Below, piece after piece: positions 9,897 to 64,000 of a DNA stretch of 64,000 nucleotides. Source of the DNA: Rhodothermales bacterium (lineage in GTDB: Bacteria; Bacteroidota; Rhodothermia; Rhodothermales; Bin80); the NCBI GenBank assembly GCA_951812585.1, contig OX638318.1:2795978-2859977 (forward strand). The letters run 5' to 3'. The position numbers and the translations under genes were made by a program. Every line of letters begins with the position of its first letter. Positions within the stretch are counted from its first letter, which is position 1. The notes under the pieces are model-generated. The model saw only the letters and a program-made list of their open reading frames with translations, made no database searches and was not told the DNA's origin.

Positions 9897-10333
9897 TGGT
9901 CTCTCACGCCTTGCCGCGCTTCATACCAGCTGCAGGGTACTTCTTTAGAGGCGAAAACACGGTCAATACGGTTCTGCTAAAGCCAACAGCGTCGCCCCTA
10001 GCCGTGCCGGGCGCACCTTAATCTAATGTGGTGCAACGTGGATTGCCAGCGACAGCGCAGCGCTGCTGCTGAATGCTCCAAAGAAGGCTGCAACATGTCC
10101 GTTCGCGTGATATCAACATAATGCCATTCAGCATACGCTATCCCAGTTGTGGCAGCACTTCTGCGGGTGGCGAGGTGTATGCTGGATTTACCCATGTGGC
10201 TGTTTGTCGCGGACTGAACCGTTTCTCTTCTTTCTATAGGCCTTCACCGGGGCTTCCGCTGCCTGCGCCGGTATTCTCCGGAGCTGCTCCACCAGTACCT
10301 CCTTGATTTTGCCTCCTTTATCGCCCCATGTGG

Positions 10334-11066
10334 TCATGTACCGCCATGCCATGTCATGATGCTACAGTACGATTTCGTAGACATCCTTTGCATGGATGTT
10401 GAGGGTACGTAGATACCGAACCTCCCTCGTATCGCTCTTTTCCCCACCACATCCCCCTTCGAGGCCTGCTGCGCAGCACCCGAATGTGCGATACCATTCG
10501 TACTTGGTTGAGCGGCACCACCGCCCACACTTCTGCCTCGTTCTGGTTGGTTTAAGATTGGTTCTATTGGTTCTACGCGCAGATTTTCAGGGGTTTTCTG
10601 CGCATTGGCTTTTGATTGTCAGCCGGATAACAGTACTCCCACGGATCAGCGTCAACGTCCACCTCATACAGATTCGACCGCGGCCGGTGGTCTATGACCG
10701 TGACTATTCCCAGCGCCTCCAGCCGCCACAGGATGCCCTGCACCGCCCGCCTCCCTAGGCGGCAATGTTCCACCAGCGTGGCTACGGTCGGCCAGCACTG
10801 GCCGTAGTTCGTAATCGCGGATCGTACCGTACGGACAGGGCCAAGTACATGACTACCCGCTGCATATTGCGCCACTCTTTCCCCTGTAGATCAGGGTGCG
10901 TTAACACCGCATCTGTCCACGCGCGCCGGGCACGGTGGCAGTCTACTTCAGGAGTGGACGGCTTTGTACGGTCGCCGGAATTGGTACGGGACGCACTTGC
11001 ACCTTTGCGCGCGGAATGGGTATCTTTGGTACGCATAAACGACGCTCCAGCAAGCCTACGAGGCAA
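10334..11066 (-). pseudogene. Frameshifted HTH-domain Rep-like gene, copy 1 (diverged variant)
   Basis: Overlapping frames 10782-11066 and 10573-10875 give RRAWTDAVLTHPDLQG...CWPTVATLVEHCRLGRRAVQGILWRLEALGIVTV, resembling the HTH_36-type N-terminus of phage/plasmid replication proteins. Confidence 0.55.
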
Positions 11067-11171
11067 CCACGTACGAGGACGCCAAAGAAGCAGCTGAACC
11101 CTGGTCGTATGGCCTCCATTTGTCGTTGGCTCACAAGGTCAATTTTCGTTCATCAGCATAAATGAAGCACA

Positions 11172-11669
11172 ATGCGTAAGTGGCAATTACTTTTTCTGAT
11201 CCTGGCCGTGGGGTGCGAAGGGCCTGTGGGGCCGCAAGGAGAGCAGGGACTACAAGGCGAACCGGGCCCACGCGGCCCCAGTGTCATAACCAAGACGGTC
11301 ACCTTTGCGAGTGCATCGTCCACTATCTACGACGTTGACTATGTTCGTGGTTCGTGGCGCGATTCGGACATCACACCAACCGTAATAGACGAGGGCACAA
11401 TCCTAGCCTTTGCCCGCACGCCCTTTAGTCAGGATTGGTATGCGCTGCCCATAAGGTCGGATGGGGACCACGTCTACTACTATTACACGATCGGATTTGT
11501 ATCCGTCGTCTCCAGAACGTTTGACGGGTATACCTACCCTGATCCCTATTTTGTTGACGATTACACCTTCAAGTACGTCATCATACTACCGGAGGAGACG
11601 CACCGGATGGATGATATCGATGTGACCAGCCATGAAGCCATAATGAACGCCTTGGGAGGTGCAATATGA
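11172..11669 (+). CDS. Collagen-like lipoprotein, copy 1
   Basis: Lipobox LAVGC followed by seven Gly-X-Y triplets (GPV GPQ GEQ GLQ GEP GPR GPS) and an aromatic-rich globular domain; 165 aa. Confidence 0.8.
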   Translation: MRKWQLLFLILAVGCEGPVGPQGEQGLQGEPGPRGPSVITKTVTFASASSTIYDVDYVRGSWRDSDITPTVIDEGTILAFARTPFSQDWYALPIRSDGDHVYYYYTIGFVSVVSRTFDGYTYPDPYFVDDYTFKYVIILPEETHRMDDIDVTSHEAIMNALGGAI

Positions 11670-11679
11670 ACACTTCATC

Positions 11680-11790
11680 ATGAGATTGCTTGCTGCATGT
11701 TTGTTTACAGTGTTACTGGCAAGTTGTGACACTGGCAGCAGGATTATGGTTCTGCAGACACCTTCAGAAATGCCCACAGGGCTGATTTAA
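11680..11790 (+). pseudogene. Short or truncated second lipoprotein, copy 1
   Basis: Hand translation MRLLAACLFTVLLASCDTGSRIMVLQTPSEMPTGLI* has lipobox LLASC and stops after 36 aa; repeated at 15459-15569. Confidence 0.45.
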
Positions 11791-12641
11791 GGCCCCCTCT
11801 CGCGCCGCTCCGCAGAAAAGTCATATCATCCACACTGCCCGCACGGAAGAGGAGGCGTGCATGGCCGCCCATAGTGGCGTTGGTTCCTTCTGCTATGGCT
11901 ACGTATGCGACCAATCTCCCACCGGCTTCGCGGCAGTCTGGCAACGGGGAAGGACAGACGTCGGCGTCCCGCATACGGCGCGACTTAAGCCGGCCCAAGC
12001 TTGAGCGCCGCTTTGAGCTGTCCCTCGAGGATCACCGGGGGCGGCGCCGGATCGCATCCGAAGCGTTTGGCGCTGGCCTGGGATCGCGGGCGTGGTGATG
12101 ATATGGGGCTGTAGGCAGGTCGAGAATCGTCGTAAGTCGGGTAAATACCCGATCGAGTGCCATTTACGGCGATTCTGACGTAAGAGCTGAAACGACGCCA
12201 TACGGCCCGTATGAGCCGCGTAGAGTTGTTCTGACGCGGGTTAAGTGAGGGACAGGGTTTTTAAAGAGGAACCGCGCCGTAAGCATGTCAGGGCAGCGCC
12301 TGGATAACGGCGCTCACGGCCGCCCGCTCAATAGGGATCCGGTACGCATCGTAGAGGCACCGCCAATCCCGATCCTCCCGAAAGCGCTCAGTGGCGCCCT
12401 GGTGCGCCACTGCCTGCTGTTCTCCGGAGAGGAGCACCAGACGCTCCTTATTGCGCGCACGCAGTGTTTCCGCCTTTGCCTCTTCCGCTTCCAACACCGC
12501 GGCATCCGCCGCTTTTCTTCTTTCTCCTGCTGGGCCTTCATCTGGGCTTCCGCTGCCGGTTCAGATTTTATAGTAGGACCGTCCCGGCTGGGCGAGCTAC
12601 TTTGGCTCGTTACCGCCACTCACCCAAACCGGAACGGTCTC

Positions 12642-13792
12642 ATGCAAAAACACACTCAACCCTCCACTTTCGCTTCGCCGTTGTTTGTCGGCATGGACAT
12701 GCACAAGAAGACGATTGCATTCTGTGTTTACGACGATGAGACGGGCGAGCTCATTGACGAGCGGCAATTGCCAAACGATTGGGCGAAGATCCGCAAGTAT
12801 ATTGACAACGTGCAGAAGCAGCATGGTGAACCCCAGTGTTGTTATGAGGCGTCGTCCTGCGGGTTCGTGTTGTATCGTGCGCTGCGGGCGCTGGGCGTGC
12901 ATTGTGATGTGATTGCTCCCTCGTCCATTCCGCGCCGTCCCGGCGATCGGGTCAAGACGGATCACCGGGATGCTAGAAAGCTGGCCACGCTGTATGCCGC
13001 CGGCCTGTTGACGCCGGTTACCGTGCCGGACGAGGAACGGGAAGCGATGCGGTCGCTGGTGCGTTGCCGGGCCGACTTGGTGGACGTGCTGACGCGGACC
13101 AAGCAGCGGGCCTTGTTTTTCGTACAGGCCCGCGGATACCGTTACTGCGGCGGCCGTCACTGGAGCTGCGCCTTCCGAAAGTGGATCACCACGCTGCCGT
13201 TGTCCGCGGTGGATCAGATCACGCTGCAAGCGTATCTGCACAAGATCACGTACCTGGAGCAGGAAGTACGTAGGCTAGAGGATCTTTTGGCGCAAGCGGC
13301 CCAAAAGGATCGCTACCGGGACACGGTCAACGTGCTGTCGGCCTTCCGGGGTATTGGACTCATGACTGCACTGACGCTGCTGTGCGAGCTCGGGGATATT
13401 CGGCGCTTTGCCCATCCGCGCCAGTTGATGGCATATTTGGGCTTGGTGCCCAGCGAGCATACTTCAGGGGATCGGGTTATGCGCGGCTCCATCACCAAGA
13501 CAGGCAACACGCATGCCCGCAAGGCCTTGGTGTCAACGGCGTGGAAGTATGCGACCGCTCCCCGATGCAGCGCGGCCTTGCGAGCGCGGCACAGGGCGTC
13601 TCCGCTGAAGTCATACGGATTGCCTGGAAAGCCCCGTGCCGGCTGCACAAGCGCTTCAGAAAGCTGATCCATTCCAAATCGCAGTGTGTGGCGAACGTAG
13701 CGGTGGCGCGTGAGTTGGCAGGCTTTCTATGGGAGGCAATGCAAGCACACGCCGGCACAGCGGTAGCGCAGGCCGCCTGGTTCGTACCTTAA
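12642..13792 (+). pseudogene. IS110-family DEDD transposase/recombinase with a single frameshift near 13591
   Basis: Motifs VGMDMHK, CYEASSCG, KTDHRDA and GLVPSEHTSG. The C-terminus (QGVSAEVIRIAWKA...VAVARELAGFLW) continues in another frame. Confidence 0.88.
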
Positions 13793-13824
13793 CCTTGCAA
13801 TGACTTATGGAGAAACGATCTGGC

Positions 13825-13985
13825 ACGGATGGAGAACCCACGAGCATGTCTTGCGATAGCCTGGCGTACTGCCGGCGAGCTCGCATTTTCAGATAGTGGC
13901 AGCTCCCGACGAATCCGAAATCATGCGTTACGGCCGACCTCGGCCCAGCACGCGAATGCCAGAGTGATTCACCGTCGAAGACGCC
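13825..13985 (+). ncRNA. Putative bridge RNA/seekRNA of the IS1111-type element
   Basis: Two stem-internal loop-stem modules. Loop 1 strands GAGCATGTCT (13842-13851) and TTCAG (13888-13892) match the target; loop 2 strands AAATC (13918-13922) and ATGCCAG (13956-13962) match the IS circle junction. RNA ends are approximate. Confidence 0.75.
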
Positions 13986-14059
13986 CGGTCGCTTCTTCAT
14001 AGGTCAAGACACAAATGCTTCATGTAATCTTAACTTGACATAGGGTCCTACTATGCCAG

Positions 14060-14845
14060 GTATGCTCCGGAGCCGCTCCACCAGTACCCCCTTGATTTTG
14101 CCTTCTTCATCTCCCCATGTGGTCATGCACCGCCATGCCATGTCACGGTGCACCCGTGCGATTGCGTAAACATCCTTTGCATGGATGTTGAGGGTACGGA
14201 GATACGAACCGCTCTCGTCTCTGTCGTGCCGTAGTACGCCGGCATGCTTGCGGCGTGCTGCGCAGCGCCCGAATGTGCGATACCATTCGTACTTGGTTGA
14301 GCGGCACCACCGCCCACACTTCTGCCTCGTTCTGGTTGGTTTAATCGTTGTTCTATCCTATGCGGCGTTTTCCCGGGGATTTTGCCGCGTAGAACTTTTG
14401 ACTCCCGGATGGCTCGCAGTACGTCCACGGGTCAGCACCAACAGGCAACGTGTACACATTCGATAGCGGCCGCCGGTCTGTGACCGTGAGGATTCCCAGT
14501 GATTCCAGCCGCCGCAGAATCCTCTGCATCGTCCGCCGATCGAATTTACAATGCTCCGCCAGTGCTGGGACAGTCGTGGCTGTAGTGGGATAAGCGCGGA
14601 TCGTAGCACATGGACATCGCAAGCTGAACAGCGACGCGGTGCATTCCGAGCTTGCGCGCACCCTGCAACTCAGGGTGAGCTAATGCCGCGTCTATCCAGG
14701 CGCGCCGGGCGCGGTGGCAGTCTACTTCAGGAGTGGACGGCTTTGTACGGTCGCCGGAATTGGTACGGGGCACACTTGCACCTTTGCGCGCGGAATGGGT
14801 ATCTTTGGTACGCATAAACGACGCTCCAGCAAGCCTACGAGGCAA
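14060..14845 (-). pseudogene. Frameshifted HTH-domain Rep-like gene, copy 2 (5' part; continues past the IS towards 12314)
   Basis: Frames give RRAWIDAALAHPELQG and TVPALAEHCKFDRRTMQRILRRLESLGILTV. The IS interrupts the ERLRSIP|E(P/Q)AAEAQMKA segment that is intact at 16682-17026. Confidence 0.55.
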
Positions 14846-14950
14846 CCATGTACGAGGACGCCAAAGAAGCAGCTGAACCCTGGTCGTATGGCCTCCATTT
14901 GTCGTTGGCTCACAAGGTCAATTTTCGTTCATCAGCATAAATGAAGCACA

Positions 14951-15448
14951 ATGCGTAAGTGGCAATTACTTTTTCTGATCCTGGCCGTGGGGTGCGAAGG
15001 GCCTGTGGGGCCGCAAGGAGAGCAGGGACTACAAGGCGAACCGGGCCCACGCGGCCCCGGTGTCATAACCAAGACGGTCACCTTTGCGAGTGCATCGTCC
15101 ACTATCTACGACGTTGACTATGTTCGTGGTTCGTGGCGCGATTCGGACATCACACCAACCGTAATAGACGAGGGCGCAATTCTAGTCTTTGTCCGCTTTC
15201 CTACTGGTCAGGATTGGTATGCGCTGCCCAGAACGTGGGATGGGCACCACGCCTACTACTATTACACGATCGGATTTGTATCCGTCGTCTTCAGAACGTT
15301 TGACGGGTATACCTACTCTGATCCCTATTTTGTTGACGATTACACCTTCAAGTACGTCATCATACCACCGGAGGAGACGCACCGGATGGATGATATCGAT
15401 GTGACCAGCCATGAAGCCATAATGAACGCCTTGGGAGGTGCAATATGA
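14951..15448 (+). CDS. Collagen-like lipoprotein, copy 2 (variant allele)
   Basis: Same 165-aa architecture as 11172-11669, with 15 amino-acid differences. Confidence 0.8.
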   Translation: MRKWQLLFLILAVGCEGPVGPQGEQGLQGEPGPRGPGVITKTVTFASASSTIYDVDYVRGSWRDSDITPTVIDEGAILVFVRFPTGQDWYALPRTWDGHHAYYYYTIGFVSVVFRTFDGYTYSDPYFVDDYTFKYVIIPPEETHRMDDIDVTSHEAIMNALGGAI

Positions 15449-16174
15449 ACACTTCATCATGAGATTGCTTGCTGCATGTTTGTTTACAGTGTTACTGGCA
15501 AGTTGTGACACTGGCAGCAGGATTATGGTTCTGCAGACACCTTCAGAAATGCCCACAGGGCTGATTTAAGGCCCCCTCTCGCGCCGCTCCGCAGAAAAGT
15601 CATATCATCCACACTGCCCGCACGGAAGAGGAGGCGTGCATGGCCGCCCATAGTGGCGTTGGTTCCTTCTGCTATGGCTACGTATGCGACCAATCTCCCA
15701 CCGGCTTCGCGGCAGTCTGGCAACGGGGAAGGACAGACGTCGGCGTCCCGCATACGGCGCGACTTAAGCCGGCCCAAGCTTGAGCGCCGCTTTGAGCTGT
15801 CCCTCGAGGATCACCGGGGGCGGCGCCGGATCGCATCCGAAGCGTTTGGCGCTGGCCTGGGATCGCGGGCGTGGTGATGATATGGGGCTGTAGACAGGTC
15901 GAGAATCGTCGTAAGTCGGGTAAATACCCGATCGAGTGCCATTTACGGCGATTCTGACGTAAGAGCTGAAACGACGCCATACGGCCCGTATGAGTCGCGT
16001 AGAATTGTTCTGACGCGGGTTAAGTGAGGGACAGGGTTTTTAAAGAGGAACCGCGCCGTAAGCATGTCAGGGCAGCGCCTGGATAACGGCGATCACGGCC
16101 GCGGCGGCCGCAATGAGGCCAAGACCTATACCGATGGTCCACTGGATGAGCTTGGCAGAGGCTTGGGCCACGAC

Positions 16175-16336
16175 CTAGAAAAAGACGATGTATGCCCCGC
16201 CAGCTGCCAGGATGGCGACGCCGATACCGATGAACCAAAACAGCAAGTTGAATTTGGCGTTTTGTGCCTCCAACTTGCTCTCGAAGCGATGGATAAGGTT
16301 GGTTGAGGCCATTTCTTCAACCAGTTTCGTGAGCAT
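16175..16336 (-). CDS. Small coiled-coil plus C-terminal TM protein, probably the 3' part of a frameshifted gene
   Basis: Hand translation MLTKLVEEMASTNLIHRFESKLEAQNAKFNLLFWFIGIGVAILAAGGAYIVFF*; below the ORF-track cutoff; deleted in copy 1. Confidence 0.5.
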   Translation of the reverse strand: MLTKLVEEMASTNLIHRFESKLEAQNAKFNLLFWFIGIGVAILAAGGAYIVFF

Positions 16337-16436
16337 CTCGGCCCTGAAGGCCGGCGCGGGTCAGAATGTCGTACAGCTGTGCCCGAGCGTCCGGCCGACG
16401 GGCAGGCGTTCCGGTTCGTTACCAGCCATAGCGGCT

Positions 16437-17326
16437 TTACGATGCGCACACCTGTACCGGTTCCACCTCAGGCCGGACAATGCCCGCCCATTTCGCGCCG
16501 GCGCTTCCGCCTGCTCCACATCGCCCCAATGGGTCCGTACAGGTCCATTGCCACCGGTGGATCGCCGTCCTGTGGGGGACGGGAAGCTCGTCCTTGTCCA
16601 GCGCGTCAAGCGCCTGCGTCAGGCACTTCTCCAGCCTCTTGGGTAAAAGCGCCCTCGGCAGCGCATCCCAATCTGCGGCGCTCACGGCCGCCCGCTCAAT
16701 AGGGATCCGGTACGTATCGTAGAGGCACTGCCAATCCCGATCCTCCCGAAAGCACTCAGTGGCGCCCTGGCGCGCCACTGTCTGCTGTTCTCCGGAGAGG
16801 AGCACCAGACGCTCTTTATTGCGCGCATGCAGCGCCTCCACCTTTGCCTCTTCCGCTTCCAACACCGCGGCATCCGCCGCTTTTCTTCTTTCTTCTGCCG
16901 GGCCTTCATCTGGGCTTCCGCTGCCTGTTCAGGTATGCTCCGGAGTCGCTCCACCAGTACCCCCTTGATTTTGCCTTCTTCATCTCCCCATGTGGTCATG
17001 CACCGCCATGCCATGTCACGGTGCACCCGTGCGATTGCGTAAACATCCTTTGCATGGATGTTGAGGGTACGGAGATACGAACCGCTCTCGTCTCTGTCGT
17101 GCCGTAGTACGCCGGCATGCTTGCGGCGTGCTGCGCAGCGCCCGAATGTGCGATACCATTCGTACTTGGTTGAGCGGCACCACCGCCCACACTTCTGCCT
17201 CGTTCTGGTTGGTTTAATCGTTGTTCTATCCTATGCGGCGTTTTCCCGGGGATTTTGCCGCGTAGAACTTTTGACTCCCGGATGGCTCGCAGTACGTCCA
17301 TGGGTCAACACCAACAGGCAACGTGT
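16437..17326 (-). pseudogene. 3' part of the Rep-like gene, running across the unit junction (several frames)
   Basis: Overlapping ORFs 16996-17301, 16682-17026 and 16437-16865 with coiled-coil-like EAEEAKVEALHARNKERL; homologous to 12288-12564. Confidence 0.45.
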
Positions 17327-52626: not shown

Positions 52627-53391
52627 TTACGAATAAGCCTGCGCAGGATGGCCGATCGCGTACTCGTTGGCCTTCACGAAGGCGCGCAGCGTCCGGTCTT
52701 CGCTGCGGTGCAGTGCGTCGATGTCGCCGACCCAGTGCATGCGTGTTCTGTGGATGAATGCCACGCGGTGTGCAATGCTGAGCACCGAACGCATGTCATG
52801 CGTGACCACGATGCTGGTCACATCAAGTTGGTCAGCCAGGCCTTTGATCAGGTTATTGATCGTGGTTGAGGTATGCGGGTCGAGTCCACTGGTCGGTTCG
52901 TCGTAGAGGATGTAGCGCGGTTCCAGGGCGACGGCGCGCGCAAGCGCCACGCGCTTGATCATTCCGCCCGAAAGCTCGGAAGGTCGCTTCGTACCCACAT
53001 CAGACAGGTTAACCAGGTCCAGGCATCGGAGCACGCGATCGCGGACCTGCTGCTCGGTGCTGTCGGTGAAGGTGCGTATCGGAAAGGCTACGTTGTCAAA
53101 GGCGCTCATGGAATCAAACAGCGCGCCGCCTTGAAACAGTACGCCAAACTGTCGGCGCACCGTGCGCAGCTCCCTGTAGGAGATGCGCCCAATGTCGATG
53201 CCGTCCACCAGAACCCGTCCTTTGTCCGGCTGCAAAAGTCCAATGGCATGCTTCATGAGGACGCTCTTGCCTGATCCGCTGCGCCCAATGATAGCGAGGG
53301 TTTCGCCCTCTTGCATTTCGAGGGATACATCGCGCAGCACGGCGCGCCCGTTGAACGACTTGGATATGTTCTCCACGCAGATCATATGCAC
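52627..53391 (-). CDS. mlaF: MlaF ABC transporter ATP-binding protein
   Basis: GRSGSGKS, FQGGALFDSM, LSGGM, DEPTSGLDP and VTHD. Confidence 0.9.
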   Translation of the reverse strand: MHMICVENISKSFNGRAVLRDVSLEMQEGETLAIIGRSGSGKSVLMKHAIGLLQPDKGRVLVDGIDIGRISYRELRTVRRQFGVLFQGGALFDSMSAFDNVAFPIRTFTDSTEQQVRDRVLRCLDLVNLSDVGTKRPSELSGGMIKRVALARAVALEPRYILYDEPTSGLDPHTSTTINNLIKGLADQLDVTSIVVTHDMRSVLSIAHRVAFIHRTRMHWVGDIDALHRSEDRTLRAFVKANEYAIGHPAQAYS

Positions 53392-53401
53392 ATTCGGCTG
53401 C

Positions 53402-54163
53402 CTAAAGCAATACCAGTGCCAACACGAGGTCAGACAACAGGATATAGACGCAGCTGATCACCGCGGCCTGCGTGGTACTGCGGCCCACGCCTTCGGCGCC
53501 GCCCTCGGTGTAGTATCCCATGTAGCACGATATGGAGGTGATGACAAAGCCAAACACGAAGGACTTGATCAGCCCGAACATGGGCCCAAAGACCAGATAG
53601 TTTTCGCGGGCGCCGCGAATAAACTCGCCTGTGCTGACCACATCGGTGGCCACCGCGGCTGCCAGGCCGCCGCCCACGCCGACCAGCACGGCGGTAACGT
53701 ATAGCACGGGAAACATTATTATACCGGCCATGATCCGTGGTACGATCAGGTAGCCGATGGAGTTAAGTCCCATTGCTTCCAAGGCGTCTATCTGCTCAGT
53801 GACGCGCATGGTACCCAGCTCGGCTGCAATGCGGGCACCCACACGTCCTGCGAGGATAAACCCGGTGACGACGGCACCAAGCTCAAGAATCAGGGAGGGC
53901 ACGACGACTGCGCCGATGACCGACGGTGGGATGAAAGGCGAAACAAGCTGGTATGCGGTCTGCACGGTGGTGACAGCACCGGAGAAGGCGGCGGCGAGTG
54001 CCACTATAGGGATGGAGTCGATCCCTACGCGTCCGCACTGGACAATCAGATTCTTGCGGTAGACACTGAAATGGCCGAGTGACGTGAACCCTTTGGACAA
54101 CAGCAGTGCATATCGCCCAAGGCTGTATAGTGGCCGAATCAGCCGCTGCTCCAATGCAGCCAT
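53402..54163 (-). CDS. mlaE: MlaE ABC transporter permease
   Basis: ELG..AGRVGA..AELGTMRVTEQIDALEAMG and GGAEGVGRSTT. Confidence 0.92.
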   Translation of the reverse strand: MAALEQRLIRPLYSLGRYALLLSKGFTSLGHFSVYRKNLIVQCGRVGIDSIPIVALAAAFSGAVTTVQTAYQLVSPFIPPSVIGAVVVPSLILELGAVVTGFILAGRVGARIAAELGTMRVTEQIDALEAMGLNSIGYLIVPRIMAGIIMFPVLYVTAVLVGVGGGLAAAVATDVVSTGEFIRGARENYLVFGPMFGLIKSFVFGFVITSISCYMGYYTEGGAEGVGRSTTQAAVISCVYILLSDLVLALVLL

Positions 54164-55542
54164 ACTGTGCTTTTATCGTGCCGGGTTCAATGGTTTAGGG
54201 TGCCCGTTGTTTCGTGCATCAGGCGGGCGAGCCAGGCGCGGCTCCGTTTGTGATTGCCGCATCCCCACAGTCCGTCATGGCTAGGCCTCCCAAGTAGTCA
54301 TAAATCAGACTTACACAATGGCCTTCATAACGTTTGGCTTGCCGTTATGGAGGCGCAGCATCAGATCTTGCGTACGCTTCGGACCTCGGAGCCGGCCTTA
54401 CTGGCAACACTGGGCGCGCTAAGGTGACAATCACCTCAAATCACGGCGAAAACCTGGCTTTCAGGGCCATTTGTGCCCAAATCGGCCCAAAAACGACTAA
54501 AAAAGGTGTCAAAATGGGCCTACTGACTGCGCCGCGAGGGTGAGGCTGCGCCCGACTACTATGAAGTTCAGATTAGAATCGCCGCCTTGATCATCATACG
54601 TAAATTCCATTACAACAAAAGCCCCATGGGCTTGGCCTCGCTTAGGATCGCCGATCCTGCGAGCAAGATGGAAGCGGGGCGTACTGCCAAGGGGCGAATA
54701 CCCAGCAATACCGCGAATCCACAGACAGGTCCGACCCCCTGCCCCGAGCATGTCCCGGCACATGGCGTCTATGACAGCCTGCGCCGTCGGGTGTTTCCTG
54801 TCTATGTTGGGCGCACGTGCAGAGGAGTTCAGGTCTGAGGAGGAGATTGCTCAGACGTATCAGTTCTCCCGGACAACAAAGTTCTCGCGTGCTGCGCACA
54901 GGTACATTATCATTCTGGGACTAATCTTTGTAGGGTTATGGCGTGTGGTGCAGGTTGGCAATCCCACAGCATGCAGGCCCACGCTAGGTGACCGAGACCA
55001 AGTCGGAGGGACGAAATGCGTCGGAATACGCCCTAGATCACATCTTTACGTGGCCAACCAACTGCTGAGAGAGCCGTTTGCGCTGCGTGCAAACACGGAC
55101 TATGGGTTTCAGGGTAGGGTCCACTTTTTTCAACAGCGCTTGATTAAGGGGCATTGTATTGCTTAACATTACAGGCCAGCGTGGTCGTACCGATCTATCC
55201 AGCAGAATAACCGGCAGGTTTACAATTGGCTTTTACGTTGTTGGTGTAGGACTTCTTCTCCTCGCGGGGAAGGCTTGGTACGGTGCGACGAAAAGTGCCG
55301 CTGCGAGGTGTGCGGGGAGTTTTGCGGTTGCAGCGACGACGAGTAGCGTACAATGGAGGGTTATCTCTTCCGGTCGGCCCTAACTGGGGTCACGCCCGTT
55401 GCGGTCAAGTGGCTGAGTCGGTCCGTTATCTTCTTAAGTCGTTGATCTGGAGTAACCGCTGCATTGTGCCCGGCTGCAGTGCTGGCTTTTTCGCGGCTGG
55501 TATCTGATGCCGCTCTTCGGTCCACAAAGATATACATGTATA

Positions 55543-55971
55543 GACGAAACGGACGGAACCGGACGACTCACCGTGCACCGATCCAAGACCGACCAGGAAG
55601 GCGCCGGCGCCGTGCTCTACCTCGGCGCGCCCACTATGCAGCGCGTGCAGGCCTGGCTTACCCGTGCAGGCATTGGTGCTGGACCCGTGTTCCGATCGGT
55701 CCGCAAGGCCGGCAGCGCTATCGGCCCCCGACTCACCGCCCGTAGCGTATCGCGCATCATCCAGCGTGTCGCCGAGCCGCTGAGTATCACCGGGCGCGTC
55801 AGCTCACACTCGTTCCGGGTGGGCTCTGCGCAGTCGCTCGTTAAACGCGGCGCCACACTCACAGAGACACAACTCGCAGGCCGGTGGAAGTCACCACGCA
55901 TGCCCGCCCACTATGCCCGCGGCCAGCTCGCAGGACGCGGCGCCATGGCCCGGTTGCGCTACGGAGCGTAA
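55543..55971 (+). pseudogene. Tyrosine recombinase (Cre-like integrase) C-terminal fragment
   Basis: RSKTDQEG, HSFRVGSAQSL and AGRWKS..MPAHYAR (catalytic K, HxxR, W, Y); the N-terminal domain and first catalytic Arg are missing. Confidence 0.85.
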
Positions 55972-57703: not shown

Positions 57704-57963
57704 CGCTTACATCGACGCTCCGACGCAGGCATGGCTGGTTCTTAGCCACCGTTTTTATCATGGTTTCCTGCTTCGGCCTTGGCATGATTGACATTCTGCC
57801 GACTCCCTCGGTGGAAATCCACTGGCCTGAGAGCGCTGCCGCGAACGCAGACCGTTACATACCTTCCTACACTCTCCAGCAAGGGCAGGAAGTCATGTTG
57901 GTGTATATCGGATCATCGTCATGTGGAGTCGGTGTATCTGTAGATTGGGATACAGACCCATGA
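57700..57963 (+). pseudogene. Truncated membrane-anchored thioredoxin-like protein
   Basis: N-terminal TM followed by EVMLVYIGSSSCG, which looks like the strand leading into a CxxC but breaks off after the first Cys. Confidence 0.4.
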
Positions 57964-59120
57964 ACCATCATTTAGATTTGCGGCGATTCCTTGTCGCGCT
58001 GGCTTTAGTGCCTTGCATCCTGGCCCCGGCCTCGGCCCAGGAGCTGTCCTTCACGCTCGTAGAGCAGTTGGTCTTAGGGGATGACGAGGAGGCGCCCGCC
58101 GAATACCTCCTCACTTTTCCCGAGCGGGTCCGGACGGACTCGAAGGGCCGGATCTATGTGAAGGATCGAAGGCGGGCGGACGTTCGCGTATTCGATGCAA
58201 GCGGGCAGTACGTCACCACGATCGGAAGCAGAGGCGAAGGCCCGGGGGAAATGCAGCGCATCGCAGGTATACACGTTGATGGCCAGGATCGGCTGACGGT
58301 GTCCGATCAAATGCTCGCACGGTTCACGATCTTCACGGATCTTGGCAATAGCCACGAAACAAAAGCCTTCGAGGTAGAGCGGACCATCTATCCAAGTCCA
58401 ATCCTATCACTTGGAGATTCCTTTGTACTCAAGTACATGGAATTTATAGACGATCCTGCTGGGAAACGCTCGGTGCTGCATCTGCACGACACCGAGTTGA
58501 ACTGGCTCGGGTCGTTTGCGCAGCTGGGGAACCTGTTTAACCTTGACATACCCTTCCAGAGGCATCGGTCCCGTAGCCGAGATGGATTAAAGGTCGCAAC
58601 GAACGGGTCGGATACGGTAGTCTTGGCCCATCGGGTTTACGGTGGATACGTCTACCGATACACACGCTCGAATGACACCTGGGTAATGGACAAGCTGAAA
58701 GGCGGACCAGCTCCCGAAAGACCATATATCCTCGTTAGCGAGCGCGACTTTGAGGCGAACCTGGATTATCGCAGATCGGCTATTTTGGGTTCATCACCGG
58801 AGGGGATCTTCCGTGCGAAAATCTTGAACTGGAGTCTGGGCGTCGTAATTCTGGCCAATGGCGAGATTGTCCACTTTACGAAGCAGACCCCGCTCGGTGA
58901 CACTGGATATACCAGCGCGGAAATGTTCAGCCAAGACGGCACCCTTGTGGGGTATGGGCCGCTGCAGTTAGATGATCCCGAGTTGGATGGCAACAAGAGG
59001 GTCAAGATCTCCATTTCCATCCTGTGGCAAGATGCGGCAGGCCGCATCTACCTTCGGCGGGAAAATGAAAGTGGCTTCTATGTTCTCAGTGTTGCCGAGC
59101 TAGTGGTCCGCCCGTTATGA
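57960..59120 (+). CDS. Secreted 6-bladed beta-propeller protein, copy 1
   Basis: Signal peptide ending ASA-Q, DSKGRIYVKD and TIGSRGEGPGEM. Confidence 0.85.
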   Translation: MNHHLDLRRFLVALALVPCILAPASAQELSFTLVEQLVLGDDEEAPAEYLLTFPERVRTDSKGRIYVKDRRRADVRVFDASGQYVTTIGSRGEGPGEMQRIAGIHVDGQDRLTVSDQMLARFTIFTDLGNSHETKAFEVERTIYPSPILSLGDSFVLKYMEFIDDPAGKRSVLHLHDTELNWLGSFAQLGNLFNLDIPFQRHRSRSRDGLKVATNGSDTVVLAHRVYGGYVYRYTRSNDTWVMDKLKGGPAPERPYILVSERDFEANLDYRRSAILGSSPEGIFRAKILNWSLGVVILANGEIVHFTKQTPLGDTGYTSAEMFSQDGTLVGYGPLQLDDPELDGNKRVKISISILWQDAAGRIYLRRENESGFYVLSVAELVVRPL

Positions 59121-59457
59121 ACCGTGCGGAGTACGAAGTACACGAAGGGCACGGATGCAGGCGGCCAGGCCCTCCAGGAAGAGCTCCTGGCACAGGAGGG
59201 TGCCGTCAGTCTCGCACCGCACCAGCAGGGCCTGCTCATCGAACTGGGGACGCAGCACGCTGGCCACTGCGGACGTGCCGCCACCATGCGGCAACAGGGA
59301 ATCAGGCATAGCCACAGTATGTACGACGCCCTGGCAAGTGAGCCGGCACTGTAAGGATTAGCCCGACCCAAGGCGGTGCAGGCTCTCGCACGCGTCCGCG
59401 TGCGAGCGCCAATAACTCCATTTTGCGCGGCTGGATAGTGCCTTTTTTTATGGCTGT

Positions 59458-59807
59458 TCAGAATGAACGGCACGGCCCATCGCGTGGGGTAGCCGGGTCA
59501 TTTTTTGGGTCCTCGGCGGCGGATCGATCGTCGGTGCTGCCTTGCCGACGCTGCTTGCTGAAGAGTTGACACGGTGTGCATCCCGCCAGCAGGAGTTCCG
59601 GGCTCGGCGTGGTCCCTGCCAGGCGGCGGATGTCGTGATCCGCTACGAAGCGGCGATCGGCAGCCACGAACCGCGTTTCAGGGTTGTTTCGGCGATAGGT
59701 TTCCGCCGTGGTCGGATCAGCGTCTATTCCGGCCATCACACCCCACCTGGCCCGGCGCAATCCTCGCGTCAGTCCCTTGCGCCGCAAAACAGGTCGCGTA
59801 CCTTCAT
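59458..59807 (-). pseudogene. DNA (cytosine-5) methyltransferase N-terminal remnant
   Basis: MKVRDLFCGA (motif I), a frameshift to GLTRGL, AGID...TYRRN, and motif IV LAGCTPCQLFS; truncated afterwards. Confidence 0.75.
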
Positions 59808-60087: not shown

Positions 60088-60949
60088 TTATCTCTCCCCG
60101 CTGGTCACATCAAGTTGGTCAGCCAGGCCTTTGATCAGGTTATTGATCGTGGTTGAGGTATGCGGGTCGAGTCCACTGGTCGGTTCGTCGTAGAGGATGT
60201 AGCGCGGTTCCAGGGCGACGGCGCGCGCAAGCGCCACGCGCTTGATCATTCCGCCCGAAAGCTCGGAAGGTCGCTTCGTACCCACATCAGACAGGTTAAC
60301 CAGGTCCAGGCATCGGAGCACGCGATCGCGGACCTGCTGCCACGAAGGACTTGATCAGCCCGAACATGGGCCCAAAGACCAGATAGTTTTCGCGGGCGCC
60401 GCGAATAAACTCGCCTGTGCTGACCACATCGGTGGCCACCGCGGCTGCCAGGCCGCCGCCCACGCCGACCAGCACGGCGGTAACGTATAGCACGGGAAAC
60501 ATTATTATACCGGCCATGATCCGTGGTACGATCAGGTAGCCGATGGAGTTAAGTCCCATTGCTTCCAAGGCGTCTATCTGCTCAGTGACGCGCATGGTAC
60601 CCAGCTCGGCTGCAATGCGGGCACCCACACGTCCTGCGAGGATAAACCCGGTGACGATGGCACCAAGCTCAAGAATCAGCGAGGGCACGACGACCGCGCC
60701 GATGACCGACGGTGGGATGAAAGGCGAAACAAGCTGGTATGCGGTCTGCACGGTGGTGACAGCACCGGAGAAGGCGGCGGCGAGTGCCACTATAGGGATG
60801 GAGTCGATCCCTACGCGTCCGCACTGGACAATCAGATTCTTGCGGTAGACACTGAAATGGCCGAGTGACGTGAACCCTTTGGACAACAGCAGTGCATATC
60901 GCCCAAGGCTGTATAGTGGCCGAATCAGCCGCTGCTCCAATGCAGCCAT
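60088..60949 (-). pseudogene. Duplicated, deleted mlaE'-'mlaF remnant
   Basis: The mlaE copy is truncated after IKSFV and fused to an internal mlaF fragment through loss of 53054-53554. Confidence 0.85.
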
Positions 60950-62331
60950 ACTGTGCTTTTATCGTGCCGGGTTCAATGGTTTAGGGTGCCCGTTGTTTCG
61001 TGCATCAGGCGGGCGAGCCAGGCGCGGCTCCGTTTGTGATTGCCGCATCCCCACAGTCCGTCATGGCTAGGCCTCCCAAGTAGTCATAAATCAGACTTAC
61101 ACAATGGCCTTCATAACGTTTGGCTTGCCGTTATGGAGGCGCAGCATCAGATCTTGCGTACGCTTCGGACCTCGGAGCCGGCCTTACTGGCAACACTGGG
61201 CGCGCTAAGGTGACAATCACCTCAAATCACGGCGAAAACCTGGCTTTCAGGGCCATTTGTGCCCAAATCGGCCCAAAAACGACTAAAAAAGGTGTCAAAA
61301 TGGGCCTACTGACTGCGCCGCGAGGGTGAGGCTGCGCCCGACTACTATGAAGTTCAGATTAGAATCGCCGCCTTGATCATCATACGTAAATTCCATTACA
61401 ACAAAAGCCCCATGGGCTTGGCCTCGCTTAGGATCGCCGATCCTGCGAGCAAGATGGAAGCGGGGCGTACTGCCAAGGGGCGAATACCCAGCAATACCGC
61501 GAATCCACAGACAGGTCCGACCCCCTGCCCCGAGCATGTCCCGGCACATGGCGTCTATGACAGCCTGCGCCGTCGGGTGTTTCCTGTCTATGTTGGGCGC
61601 ACGTGCAGAGGAGTTCAGGTCTGAGGAGGAGATTGCTCAGACGTATCAGTTCTCCCGGACAACAAAGTTCTCGCGTGCTGCGCACAGGTACATTATCATT
61701 CTGGGACTAATCTTTGTAGGGTTATGGCGTGTGGTGCAGGTTGGCAATCCCACAGCATGCAGGCCCACGCTAGGTGACCGAGACCAAGTCGGAGGGACGA
61801 AATGCGTCGGAATACGCCCTAGATCACATCTTTACGTGGCCAACCAACTGCTGAGAGAGCCGTTTGTGCTGCGTGCAAACACGGACTATGGGTTTCAGGG
61901 TAGGGTCCATTTTTTTTTCAACAGGACTTGATTAAGGGGCATTGTATTGCTTAACATTACAGGCCAGCGTGGTCGTACCGATCTATCCAGCAGAATAACC
62001 GACAGGTTTACAATTGGCTTTTACGTTGTTGGTGTAGGACTTCTTCTCCTCGCGGGGAAGGTTTGGTACGGTGCGACGAAAAGTGCCGCTGCGAGGTGCG
62101 CGGGGAGCTTTGCGGTTGCAGCGACGACGAGTAGCGTACAATGGAGGGTTACCTCTTCCGGTCGGCCCTAACTGGGGTCACGCCCGTTGCGGTCAAGTGG
62201 CTGAGCCGGTCCGTTATCTTCTTAAGTCGTTGATCTGGAGCAACCGCTGCATCGTGCCCGGCTGCAGTGCTGGCTTTTTCGCGGCTGGTATCTGATGCCG
62301 CTCTTCGGTCCACAAAGATATACATGTATAC

Positions 62332-63492
62332 ATGAACCATCATTTAGATTTGCGGCGATTCCTTGTCGCGCTGGCTTTAGTGCCTTGCATCCTGGCCCCG
62401 GCCTCGGCCCAGGAGCTGTCCTTCACGCTCGTAGAGCAGTTGGTCTTAGGGGATGACGAGGAGGCGCCCGCCGAATACCTCCTCACTTTTCCCGAGCGGG
62501 TCCGGACGGACTCGAAGGGCCGGATCTATGTGAAGGATCGAAGGCGGGCGGACGTTCGCGTATTCGATGCAAGTGGGCAGTACGTCACCACGATCGGAAG
62601 CAGAGGCGAAGGCCCGGGGGAAATGCAGCGCATTGACGGTATACACGTTGATGGCCAGGATCGGCTGATCGTGTCCGATCAAATGCTCGCACGGTTCACG
62701 ATCTTCACGGATCTTGGCAATAGCCACGAAACAAAAGCCTTCGAGGTAGAGCGGACCATCTATCCAAGTCCAATCCTATCACTTGGAGATTCCTTTGTAC
62801 TCAAGTACATGGAATTTATAGACGATCCTGCTGGGAAACGCTCGGTGCTGCATCTGCACGACACCGAGTTGAACTGGCTCGGGTCGTTTGCGCAGCTGGG
62901 GAACCTGTTTAACCTTGACATACCCTTCCAGAGGCATCGGTCCCGTAGCCGAGATGGATTAAAGGTCGCAACGAACGGGTCGGATACGGTAGTCTTGGCC
63001 CATCGGGTTTACGGTGGATACGTCTACCGATACACACGCTCGAATGACACCTGGGTAATGGACAAGCTGAAAGGCGGACCAGCTCCCGAAAGACCATATA
63101 TCCTCGTTAGCGAGCGCGACTTTGAGGCGAACCTGGATTATCGCAGATCGGCTATTTTGGGTTCATCACCGGAGGGGATCTTCCGTGCGAAAATCTTGAA
63201 CTGGAGTCTGGGCGTCGTAATTCTGGCCAATGGCGAGATTGTCCACTTTACGAAGCAGACCCCGCTCGGTGACACTGGATATACCAGCGCGGAAATGTTC
63301 AGCCAAGACGGCACCCTTGTGGGGTATGGGCCGCTGCAGTTAGATGATCCCGAGTTGGATGGCAACAAGAGGGTCAAGATCTCCATTTCCATCCTGTGGC
63401 AAGATGCGGCAGGCCGCATCTACCTTCGGCGGGAAAATGAAAGTGGCTTCTATGTTCTCAGTGTTGCCGAGCTAGTGGTCCGCCCGTTATGA
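62332..63492 (+). CDS. Secreted 6-bladed beta-propeller protein, copy 2
   Basis: Near-identical to 57960-59120; differs at RIAG/RIDG and RLTV/RLIV. Confidence 0.85.
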   Translation: MNHHLDLRRFLVALALVPCILAPASAQELSFTLVEQLVLGDDEEAPAEYLLTFPERVRTDSKGRIYVKDRRRADVRVFDASGQYVTTIGSRGEGPGEMQRIDGIHVDGQDRLIVSDQMLARFTIFTDLGNSHETKAFEVERTIYPSPILSLGDSFVLKYMEFIDDPAGKRSVLHLHDTELNWLGSFAQLGNLFNLDIPFQRHRSRSRDGLKVATNGSDTVVLAHRVYGGYVYRYTRSNDTWVMDKLKGGPAPERPYILVSERDFEANLDYRRSAILGSSPEGIFRAKILNWSLGVVILANGEIVHFTKQTPLGDTGYTSAEMFSQDGTLVGYGPLQLDDPELDGNKRVKISISILWQDAAGRIYLRRENESGFYVLSVAELVVRPL

Positions 63493-64000
63493 ACCGTGCG
63501 GAGTACGAAGTACACGAAGGGCACGGATGCAGGCGGCCAGGCCCTCCAGGAAGAGCTCCTGGCACAGGAGGGTGCCGTCAGTCTCGCACCGCACCAGCAG
63601 GGCCTGCTCATCGAACTGGGGACGCAGCACGCTGGCCACTGCGGACGTGCCGCCACCATGCGGCAACAGGGAATCAGGCATAGCCACAGTATGTACGACG
63701 CCCTGGCAAGTGAGCCGGCACTGTAAGGATTAGCCCGACCCAAGGCGGTGCAGGCTCTCGCACGCGTCCGCGTGCGAGCGCCAATAACTCCATTTTGCGC
63801 GGCTGGATAGTGCCTTTTTTTATGGCTGTTCAGAATGAACGGCACGGCCCATCGCGTGGGGTAGCCGGGTCATTTTTTGGGTCCTCGGCGGCGGATCGAT
63901 CGTCGGTGCTGCCTTGCCGACGCTGCTTGCTGAAGAGTTGACACGGTGTGCATCCCGCCAGCAGGAGTTCCGGGCTCGGCGTGGTCCCTGCCAGGCGGCG

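Follow-up and report, generated by a model that had tools for sequence, protein, structure and literature searches.

Does the non-coding DNA that follows a broken transposase gene in a Rhodothermales genome encode a programmable guide RNA, and if so, which sequences do its guides read? We analyzed a window of 64,000 nucleotides (contig OX638318.1, assembly GCA_951812585.1), in which the original prediction had placed a bridge RNA with readable target and donor guides at positions 13825-13985. We are highly confident that positions 13797-14011 of the plus strand encode the bridge RNA (seekRNA) of an IS1111-type element of the IS110 family that occupies positions 12565-14059 of the same strand. 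The RNA is one further member of a class described in 2024, carried here by a decayed copy of its element. Statements below on published systems draw on excerpts of the cited reports.

The host of the RNA is an IS110-family element of the IS1111 group, and all of the features tested for this assignment were found. The boundaries of the element were fixed by an empty site. In BLAST searches of both flanks against the genome, the two were contiguous in a paralogous repeat unit, at 16932|16933. The left junction reads ..GGTTCAG|ATTTTATAG.. (in a longer reading ..GGTTCAG|ATTTTATAGTAGGACC..), the right junction reads ..CTATGCCAG|GTATGCTCC (longer, ..GGTCCTACTATGCCAG|GTATGCTCC..) and the empty paralogue reads ..CTGTTCAG|GTATGCTCC.. 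(longer, ..CCTGTTCAG|GTATGCTCCGGAG..). Because the empty paralogue joins both flanks exactly, the insert is 1495 bp long (12565-14059), and the insertion point and the common CAG are real. Since this one CAG is common to target and element, the boundary is ambiguous by 3 nt, and comparison with the empty paralogue showed that a target duplication is absent. The left target half is GGTTCAG (12558-12564, plus strand) with the AG core at its end, and the right half is GTATGCTC (14060-14067, plus strand). The unoccupied paralogous target, ..TTCAG|GTATGCTC.. (16926-16941, plus strand), is the one TTCAGGYATGCT site still left in the genome. Runs X3 and X4 contained joints that leave out 12561-14057 and 12557-14059, and these were considered as an excision product or empty allele. 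This was rejected, and the joints were read as paralogues because they carry the base differences of the repeat units (16932, 10271).

The element is flanked by tandem, diverged repeat units at 10270-12564, 14059-16932 and 16930-17326. Positions 10270-12323 resemble 14059-16102 (90%), 12308-12564 resemble 16676-16932 (94.6%) and 14057-14453 resemble 16930-17326 (99.2%). Each repeat unit contains a collagen-like G-X-Y open reading frame (11172-11669 and 14951-15448), and the target motif occurs once per unit. At the far end of the window there are further direct repeats (52813-55548 with 60100-62336, and 57959-59628 with 62331-64000), which are 99-100% identical over 0.24-2 kb.

Elements of the IS1111 group are described as having subterminal inverted repeats, 7-17 bp in length, beyond which lie short terminal extensions (PMC11208160), and a long non-coding region downstream of the transposase (PMC11187229). 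In the window a perfect 11-bp pair, ATAGTAGGACC (12570-12580, plus strand) and GGTCCTACTAT (14044-14054, plus strand), lies 5 nt inside both element ends. The non-coding DNA amounts to 77 nt 5' of the start codon and 267 nt 3' of the stop codon, the long region being the downstream one, as in the group. The DEDD transposase gene (12642-13792, plus strand) matches PF01548 (8.9e-23) and PF02371 (1.3e-21). Its product has the DEDD (RuvC-like) N-terminal domain, followed by a PF02371 domain with GLVPSEHTSG, an instance of the GL-P----S/T-G motif. The C-terminal domain aligns with that of the IS621 transposase 8wt6 (E 2.6e-10), and their SG motifs are in register.

The transposase gene is broken by a -1 frameshift near 13590. 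Three-frame translation placed the first 316 codons in one frame and the final ~67 homologous codons in a second, which closes at 13792. Seven homologues have an open transposase of 375-380 amino acids; an intact orthologue at L005, for example, has a 377-aa gene and is 82% identical, and the relatives G002 and G029 carry many intact copies. The same frameshift is present in contigs of runs X3 and X4, and a contig of run X6, from another organism, has one extra base at this place. PF01548 matched twice in the genome, to the window gene and to one truncated gene, and no intact IS110-family transposase was found among these matches. Because the recombinase is frameshifted and the genome is without another intact IS110-family enzyme, the window copy is probably immobile, most likely a relic in which the RNA gene is intact. 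The genome's only other IS110-type DEDD match (L003, G000:C1:801738-804904) is a truncated gene with a 192-aa open reading frame. Beside it lies an open reading frame which we take, from its motif pattern, to resemble a group II intron reverse transcriptase.

All three stems described for loop 1 are present: GGAG (13831-13834) with CTCC (13903-13906), CCAC (13838-13841) with GTGG (13896-13899) and TGCGA (13852-13856) with TCGCA (13881-13885). Together with an apical hairpin, stems GGAG/CTCC, CCAC/GTGG and TGCG/CGCA make up a target-binding module at 13831-13906 (plus strand). The donor-binding module follows at 13907-13977 (plus strand) and comprises an outer stem, the predicted inner stem of GCGT (13925-13928) with ACGC (13950-13953) and the GGCCGA/TCGGCC hairpin. 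The outer stem, CGACGAATC (13907-13915) with GATT/CGTCG (13966-13977), likewise exists in the window, with two outermost pairs that are unconserved in relatives. The predicted interval contains a genuine RNA and was too short. When the non-coding regions of relatives were aligned, sequences just beyond 13825-13985 were found to pair mutually; they form an outer closing stem of 20 pairs (5' strand 13801-13824, 3' strand 13983-14006, both plus strand) that encloses both loops, and the real extent is about 13797-14011 (~215 nt), beginning 5 nt past the transposase stop codon. Minimum free energy folding, which had been suggested as a check, gave a corresponding result: for 13825-13985 it reproduced loop 1 and most of loop 2 at an ordinary energy (z -0.50, with 55 of 200 shuffles equally good), and for 13800-14010, with the outer stem, it gave -81.3 kcal/mol (z -3.09, with 0 of 200 shuffles equally good).

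Across homologous elements, for which a covariance-model check had been proposed, the two-loop fold is retained and shows compensatory changes. Alignment A1 contained 212-nt stretches from 20 loci (21 of 33 loci with the RNA found by an anchor pattern, minus one duplicate). For these homologues RNAalifold returned 45 pairs, 22 of them with compensatory changes. A 50-pair structure that includes the loop 2 outer stem was paired in 90.1% of cells, compared with 32.8-44.9% when the partners were slid (32.8-47% when the larger alignment below is included), and 21 of its pairs had double changes against 13.0±2.3 in shuffles (0/500). On a model-fitted alignment of 82 distinct rows the same structure was 92.6% paired, with double changes in 33 of the 50 pairs. 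Around each loop the stems are conserved, with covariation at several pairs. In the outer closing stem, 15 of 20 pairs had compensatory changes and 91% of cells were paired in the 20 homologues; the target-module helices were 97-100% paired in this set and 96-99% paired in the 82 rows. Among the 20 homologues the inner stem of the donor module was 100% paired with one covarying pair, and in its outer stem ACG/CGU and AA/UU were kept (15-17 of 20 paired), the two outermost pairs being formed in only 4-6 of 20. U:G pairs were also kept, for example in 19 of 20 homologues at the loop-closing pair. A 57-aa open reading frame at 13829-14002, within the RNA gene, is most likely spurious, because the conservation here is one of paired stems, variable loops and non-triplet indels.

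When 61 related genomes were searched at the protein level, transposase homologues turned up in 27, including the window's genome, all from the window's family. A separate search of genome contigs with the transposase gave one distant match (31%), which was set aside. For the covariance-model search 100 of 114 loci were taken, with fragments and duplicates excluded. This returned 111 matches in the 100 loci, of which 104 were in the sense direction and downstream of the transposase, and both these and the window fit the statement of the original prediction that IS1111 members encode the RNA in this position. The remaining seven matches were antisense and scored 19.6-21.5 bits, compared with 211 bits (E 4.9e-65) for the sense strand of the window. 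Among whole genomes, 32 of the 36 sampled in the window's family gave a match to the model, compared with 0 of 25 from the order's other families; this genome set is a sample in which kin are dependent. A search of 12400-14200 on both strands gave no Rfam match at E up to 1. Because no Rfam family matches, membership in the class rests on architecture and is made without a curated model.

The first loop carries two target guides. The 5'-side guide, GAGCATGTCT (13842-13851, plus strand), is complementary to the top strand of the core and right flank; with the target AGGTATGCTC, the right half and its preceding AG, it forms the 8 Watson-Crick and 2 G:U pairs that had been claimed. The 3'-side guide is TTTTCAGATA (13886-13895, plus strand). 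Its TTCAG (13888-13892; UUCAG in the RNA) is identical to the left flank and core, as predicted, and the AT that follows is the same as the element's opening two bases. In the window 13842-13851 is complementary to the top strand and 13888-13892 to the bottom strand; the loop strands each read one target half, have the core in common and covary with their targets across relatives. Beyond the core, the 5' guide fits its own flank at 8 of 8 positions (6 Watson-Crick, 2 G:U) and the best of 64 non-cognate flanks at 6 of 8. The 3' strand matches at three of five variable positions, which is unremarkable alone, so support for the left side is carried by the family-wide test given below. The complementarity in the window is imperfect, with two G:U pairs on the right side and a match of only 5 nt on the left, and the natural target would appear to be wobble-tolerant.

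The genome has a single full copy of the element, the one in the window, and in addition one 129-nt 3' fragment with 96% identity. This solo fragment (L002 1507-1624, G000:C1:96617-96746) starts within the donor-loop hairpin and ends with ..CTATGCCAG. It adjoins GCATGCTAC, a second and similar natural right half-site that has the same G opposite the guide's U.

The guide-target covariation expected among homologues was found for both strands of the target loop. Element ends were located with simple end patterns, which failed in 15 of 86 full-length RNA matches; these 15 were excluded, leaving 71 with both ends and 65 unique insertions. Beyond the core, in 61 insertions, the 5'-strand guide matched its own right flank at 4.70 of 7 positions on average, non-cognate flanks giving 2.57; four insertions of the G016 lineage, in which the 5' guide is deleted, are excluded here, and counting them as zero gives 4.41. 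The 3'-strand guide matched its own left flank at a mean of 3.00 of 5 positions, against 1.35 for non-cognate flanks, in 64 insertions (locus L024, with a misread left end, is excluded). When flank sets were permuted among the 24 guide types of the right side and the 22 of the left, 0 of 10000 permutations reached the observed mean on either side, figures that overstate the significance because related sequences are not independent. Examples of guides and their flanks are CCGATACT with AG|TATCGG, GTGTCCTACT with AG|TAGGAC and GATATGCCCT with AG|GGCATA. Some relatives lie in sites that suit their own guide poorly: 11 of the 61 insertions scored 2-3 of 7.

Two groups of relatives depart from the usual arrangement. 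Several insertions in G006 and G013 (L064, L066, L068, L077, L085 and L086) read ..CCTATAG|element|AGTATCTGG.., with a right flank that opens with a second AG and a best guide match 2 nt off the junction. The host sequence is repeated here, and the offset is a shift of register. In G016 four copies at different sites (L095, L098, L099 and L100) have a common deletion of the 5' target guide, which leaves a loop of ~4 nt. Their 3' guide TTGCAAG matches the left flanks at five of five positions in three copies and at three of five in the fourth, and three of the four transposase matches contain a TAG.

The second loop was predicted to match the two strands of the circle junction through AAAUC (13918-13922) and AUGCCAG (13956-13962). 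These letters are present, fit the element ends and covary with them in relatives. The 5'-side donor guide is CGAAATCAT (13916-13924, plus strand), whose AAATC is complementary to GATTT at the junction of core and left end. The 3'-side donor guide is GAATGCCAGAGT (13954-13965, plus strand). Its ATGCCAG is identical to the final 7 nt of the right end, and the A that follows corresponds to the base with which the left end begins. The strands of this loop can thus pair with the joined right and left ends, and all four guides meet at the CT/AG core on which they had been said to converge.

The donor loop might still be a passive part of the RNA. It is conceivable, though improbable, that guiding is done by the first module only, as a short seekRNA of ~80-100 nt, with the second loop as scaffold or precursor without donor recognition; the ends would then be recognized by the protein on the subterminal repeats and by the flanking target halves. 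Such a reading would accord with published IS1111 members, in which the predominant co-purified RNA was the short form of 82-96 nt and retargeting required a matching donor flank (both in excerpts of PMC11187229). It would also accord with the modest match of the left-end donor guide, which is 5/6 in the window, 4/6 in the commonest relatives and 4-6/6, in two main covarying states, in all but 2 of 65 insertions. Against it stands the behavior of the donor heptamer, which in 62 of 65 unique insertions is identical to the terminus of the right end, across three states: ATACCAG (34), ACACCAG (27, plus 3 with decayed ends) and ATGCCAG, which is private to the window and found there in both places. 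The 5' donor strand covaries as well, AAATC occurring with GATTT and ATATC with GATAT, so that the strand changes alongside the left end. Furthermore, the second module and the closing stem are conserved as much as the first module, and loops complementary to target and donor have been reported in IS1111 examples (Durrant et al., in the excerpted text of PMC11208160). We therefore favor a bridge RNA in which both loops are read.

Evidence on expression came from run X1, an RNA-seq library, in which a single 165-nt contig lay exactly over 13824-13988, the part enclosed by the outer stem. The contig had three base differences; the two listed are in the closing pair of the inner stem and in the 3' target guide. 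We take it as a weak hint only, because contigs prove neither transcription nor RNA ends and DNA can contaminate an RNA library; stretches of this run without cover carry no information on expression. A promoter scan of 12400-14200 found no sigma-70-like promoter. TTGACA at 14035-14040, noticed by eye 19 nt from the right end, was tried together with the left end as a junction promoter, and no convincing promoter could be built. No terminator-like site was found in 13797-14059; one site was found at 12499-12512. Co-transcription with the transposase gene followed by processing is the likeliest origin of the RNA, because it begins 5 nt past the stop codon. The X1 contig starts and ends at the inner edge of the closing stem, and the 20-pair stem could be a processing signal that frees an RNA of ~165 nt from the transposase transcript.

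That the region acts instead as DNA (recombinase-binding sites) or as an mRNA terminator or stabilizer, its flank matches being due to chance, is very improbable: a location within the right end directly past the stop codon, a scan of 12400-14200 without a promoter of its own and the ordinary folding energy of 13825-13985 alone would suit this, whereas compensatory changes in 21-33 pairs, G:U pairs that suit one strand only, a score of 211 bits in sense against at most 21.5 bits in antisense, loop-flank covariation that 0 of 10000 permutations reached and the absence of a terminator-like site from 13797-14059 speak against it.

For the bridge RNA itself we propose the following mechanism. The RNA folds into a long closing stem around two internal-loop modules. 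The first loop would read the target through its two guides, which overlap on the AG/CT core, and the second would do the same for the junction at which the circle's two ends meet after excision. Strand exchange at the core would follow, carried out by a tetramer of the DEDD recombinase, and the circle would be inserted at TTCAG^GTATGCTC without target duplication. The binding of RNA by the protein, the strand exchange and the circular intermediate are put forward by analogy with IS621, ISEc11 and related work.

The arrangement agrees closely with that of the published IS1111 seekRNAs of ISEc11, ISPa11, ISKpn4 and ISPst6 (PMC11187229). As in the window, the RNA of these elements lies in the long downstream non-coding region, subterminal inverted repeats are present and a target duplication is absent. 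Both target strands are matched by short segments that share the insertion point, and these come in the same order, with the top-strand match on the 5' side of the bottom-strand one (Siddiquee et al. 2024, PMC11187229). These seekRNAs occur in short and long forms (PMC11187229), and the published long forms of 148-172 nt (PMC13604230) are close to the 165-nt contig of the RNA library. Sequence, target and host lineage differ, however, and IS1111 transposases are given as 330-350 aa (PMC11187229), compared with 375-380 aa for the intact homologues found here. In the window's family covariation supports a donor-matching second loop and a 20-pair closing stem, neither of which appears in the excerpted text of PMC11187229. 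IS1111 elements are reported to carry the RNA in the right end, with bridge RNAs predicted there in 93.0% of IS1111s (PMC11208160). The bridge RNAs predicted for ISfinder IS1111 elements such as ISPa11 (Durrant et al.), compared here by their description, have the same right-end placement as in the window and loops that complement target, donor and core.

The IS621 bridge RNA (PMC11208160; 8wt6-8wt9, as excerpted) also resembles that of the window in having two internal loops, target then donor, each with two guides on opposite strands that overlap at a CT core (AG on the plus strand of the window). Read with CT on top, each loop would have its long guide 5' and its short guide 3', as in IS621. 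The IS621 RNA lies in the left end before the gene, whereas in the window the RNA follows the gene, within the right end, and is encoded on the strand that carries AG at the core. The subterminal repeats of IS621 are 2-3 bp long, compared with 11 bp in the window, and of its recombinase the C-terminal domain alone aligns by sequence with that of the window.

The window RNA leaves the picture of how such elements work unchanged. It offers a cleanly decoded natural IS1111-type bridge RNA, in which four guides, the core and both an occupied and an unoccupied site can be read in one window. Its relatives, about two dozen naturally retargeted forms on one scaffold, are a comparative resource for asking which guide positions tolerate mismatches and G:U pairs in IS1111-type RNAs, whether the donor loop is used in the subgroup and whether the long closing stem plays a part. 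One conserved scaffold carries at least 24 target-guide types, and we suggest only tentatively, with the balance of judgment against it, that the window's lineage records natural reprogramming in action within one bacterial family.

In two genomes (G029 and G035; L007, L008, L057, L058 and L060) two guide variants are co-resident. Copies with the guide GAACACACCT were found in cognate sites (AG|GTGTGG..) and also in sites that fit the sister guide GAACACGGCT; at the latter both halves fit GAACACGGCT better (AG|CCGTGTGAG, left ..GTAAGAG). This suggests guidance in trans by the sibling's RNA, or a change of guide after insertion. A further locus (L117 739-2617, G013:C1:4544538-4546416) contains 5.6 tandem copies of a 343-bp unit made up of the last ~70 nt of the transposase gene, the bridge RNA and the right end. 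The joints between units read ..CACCAG|GCAGCTGAG.., and the corresponding place in full copies reads ..TTGCAAAAG|GCAGCTGAG.., which fits the lineage's left guide ACAAAAG. The array seems to have been built by recombination into a pseudo-target within the tail of the element's own gene and to have been amplified later.
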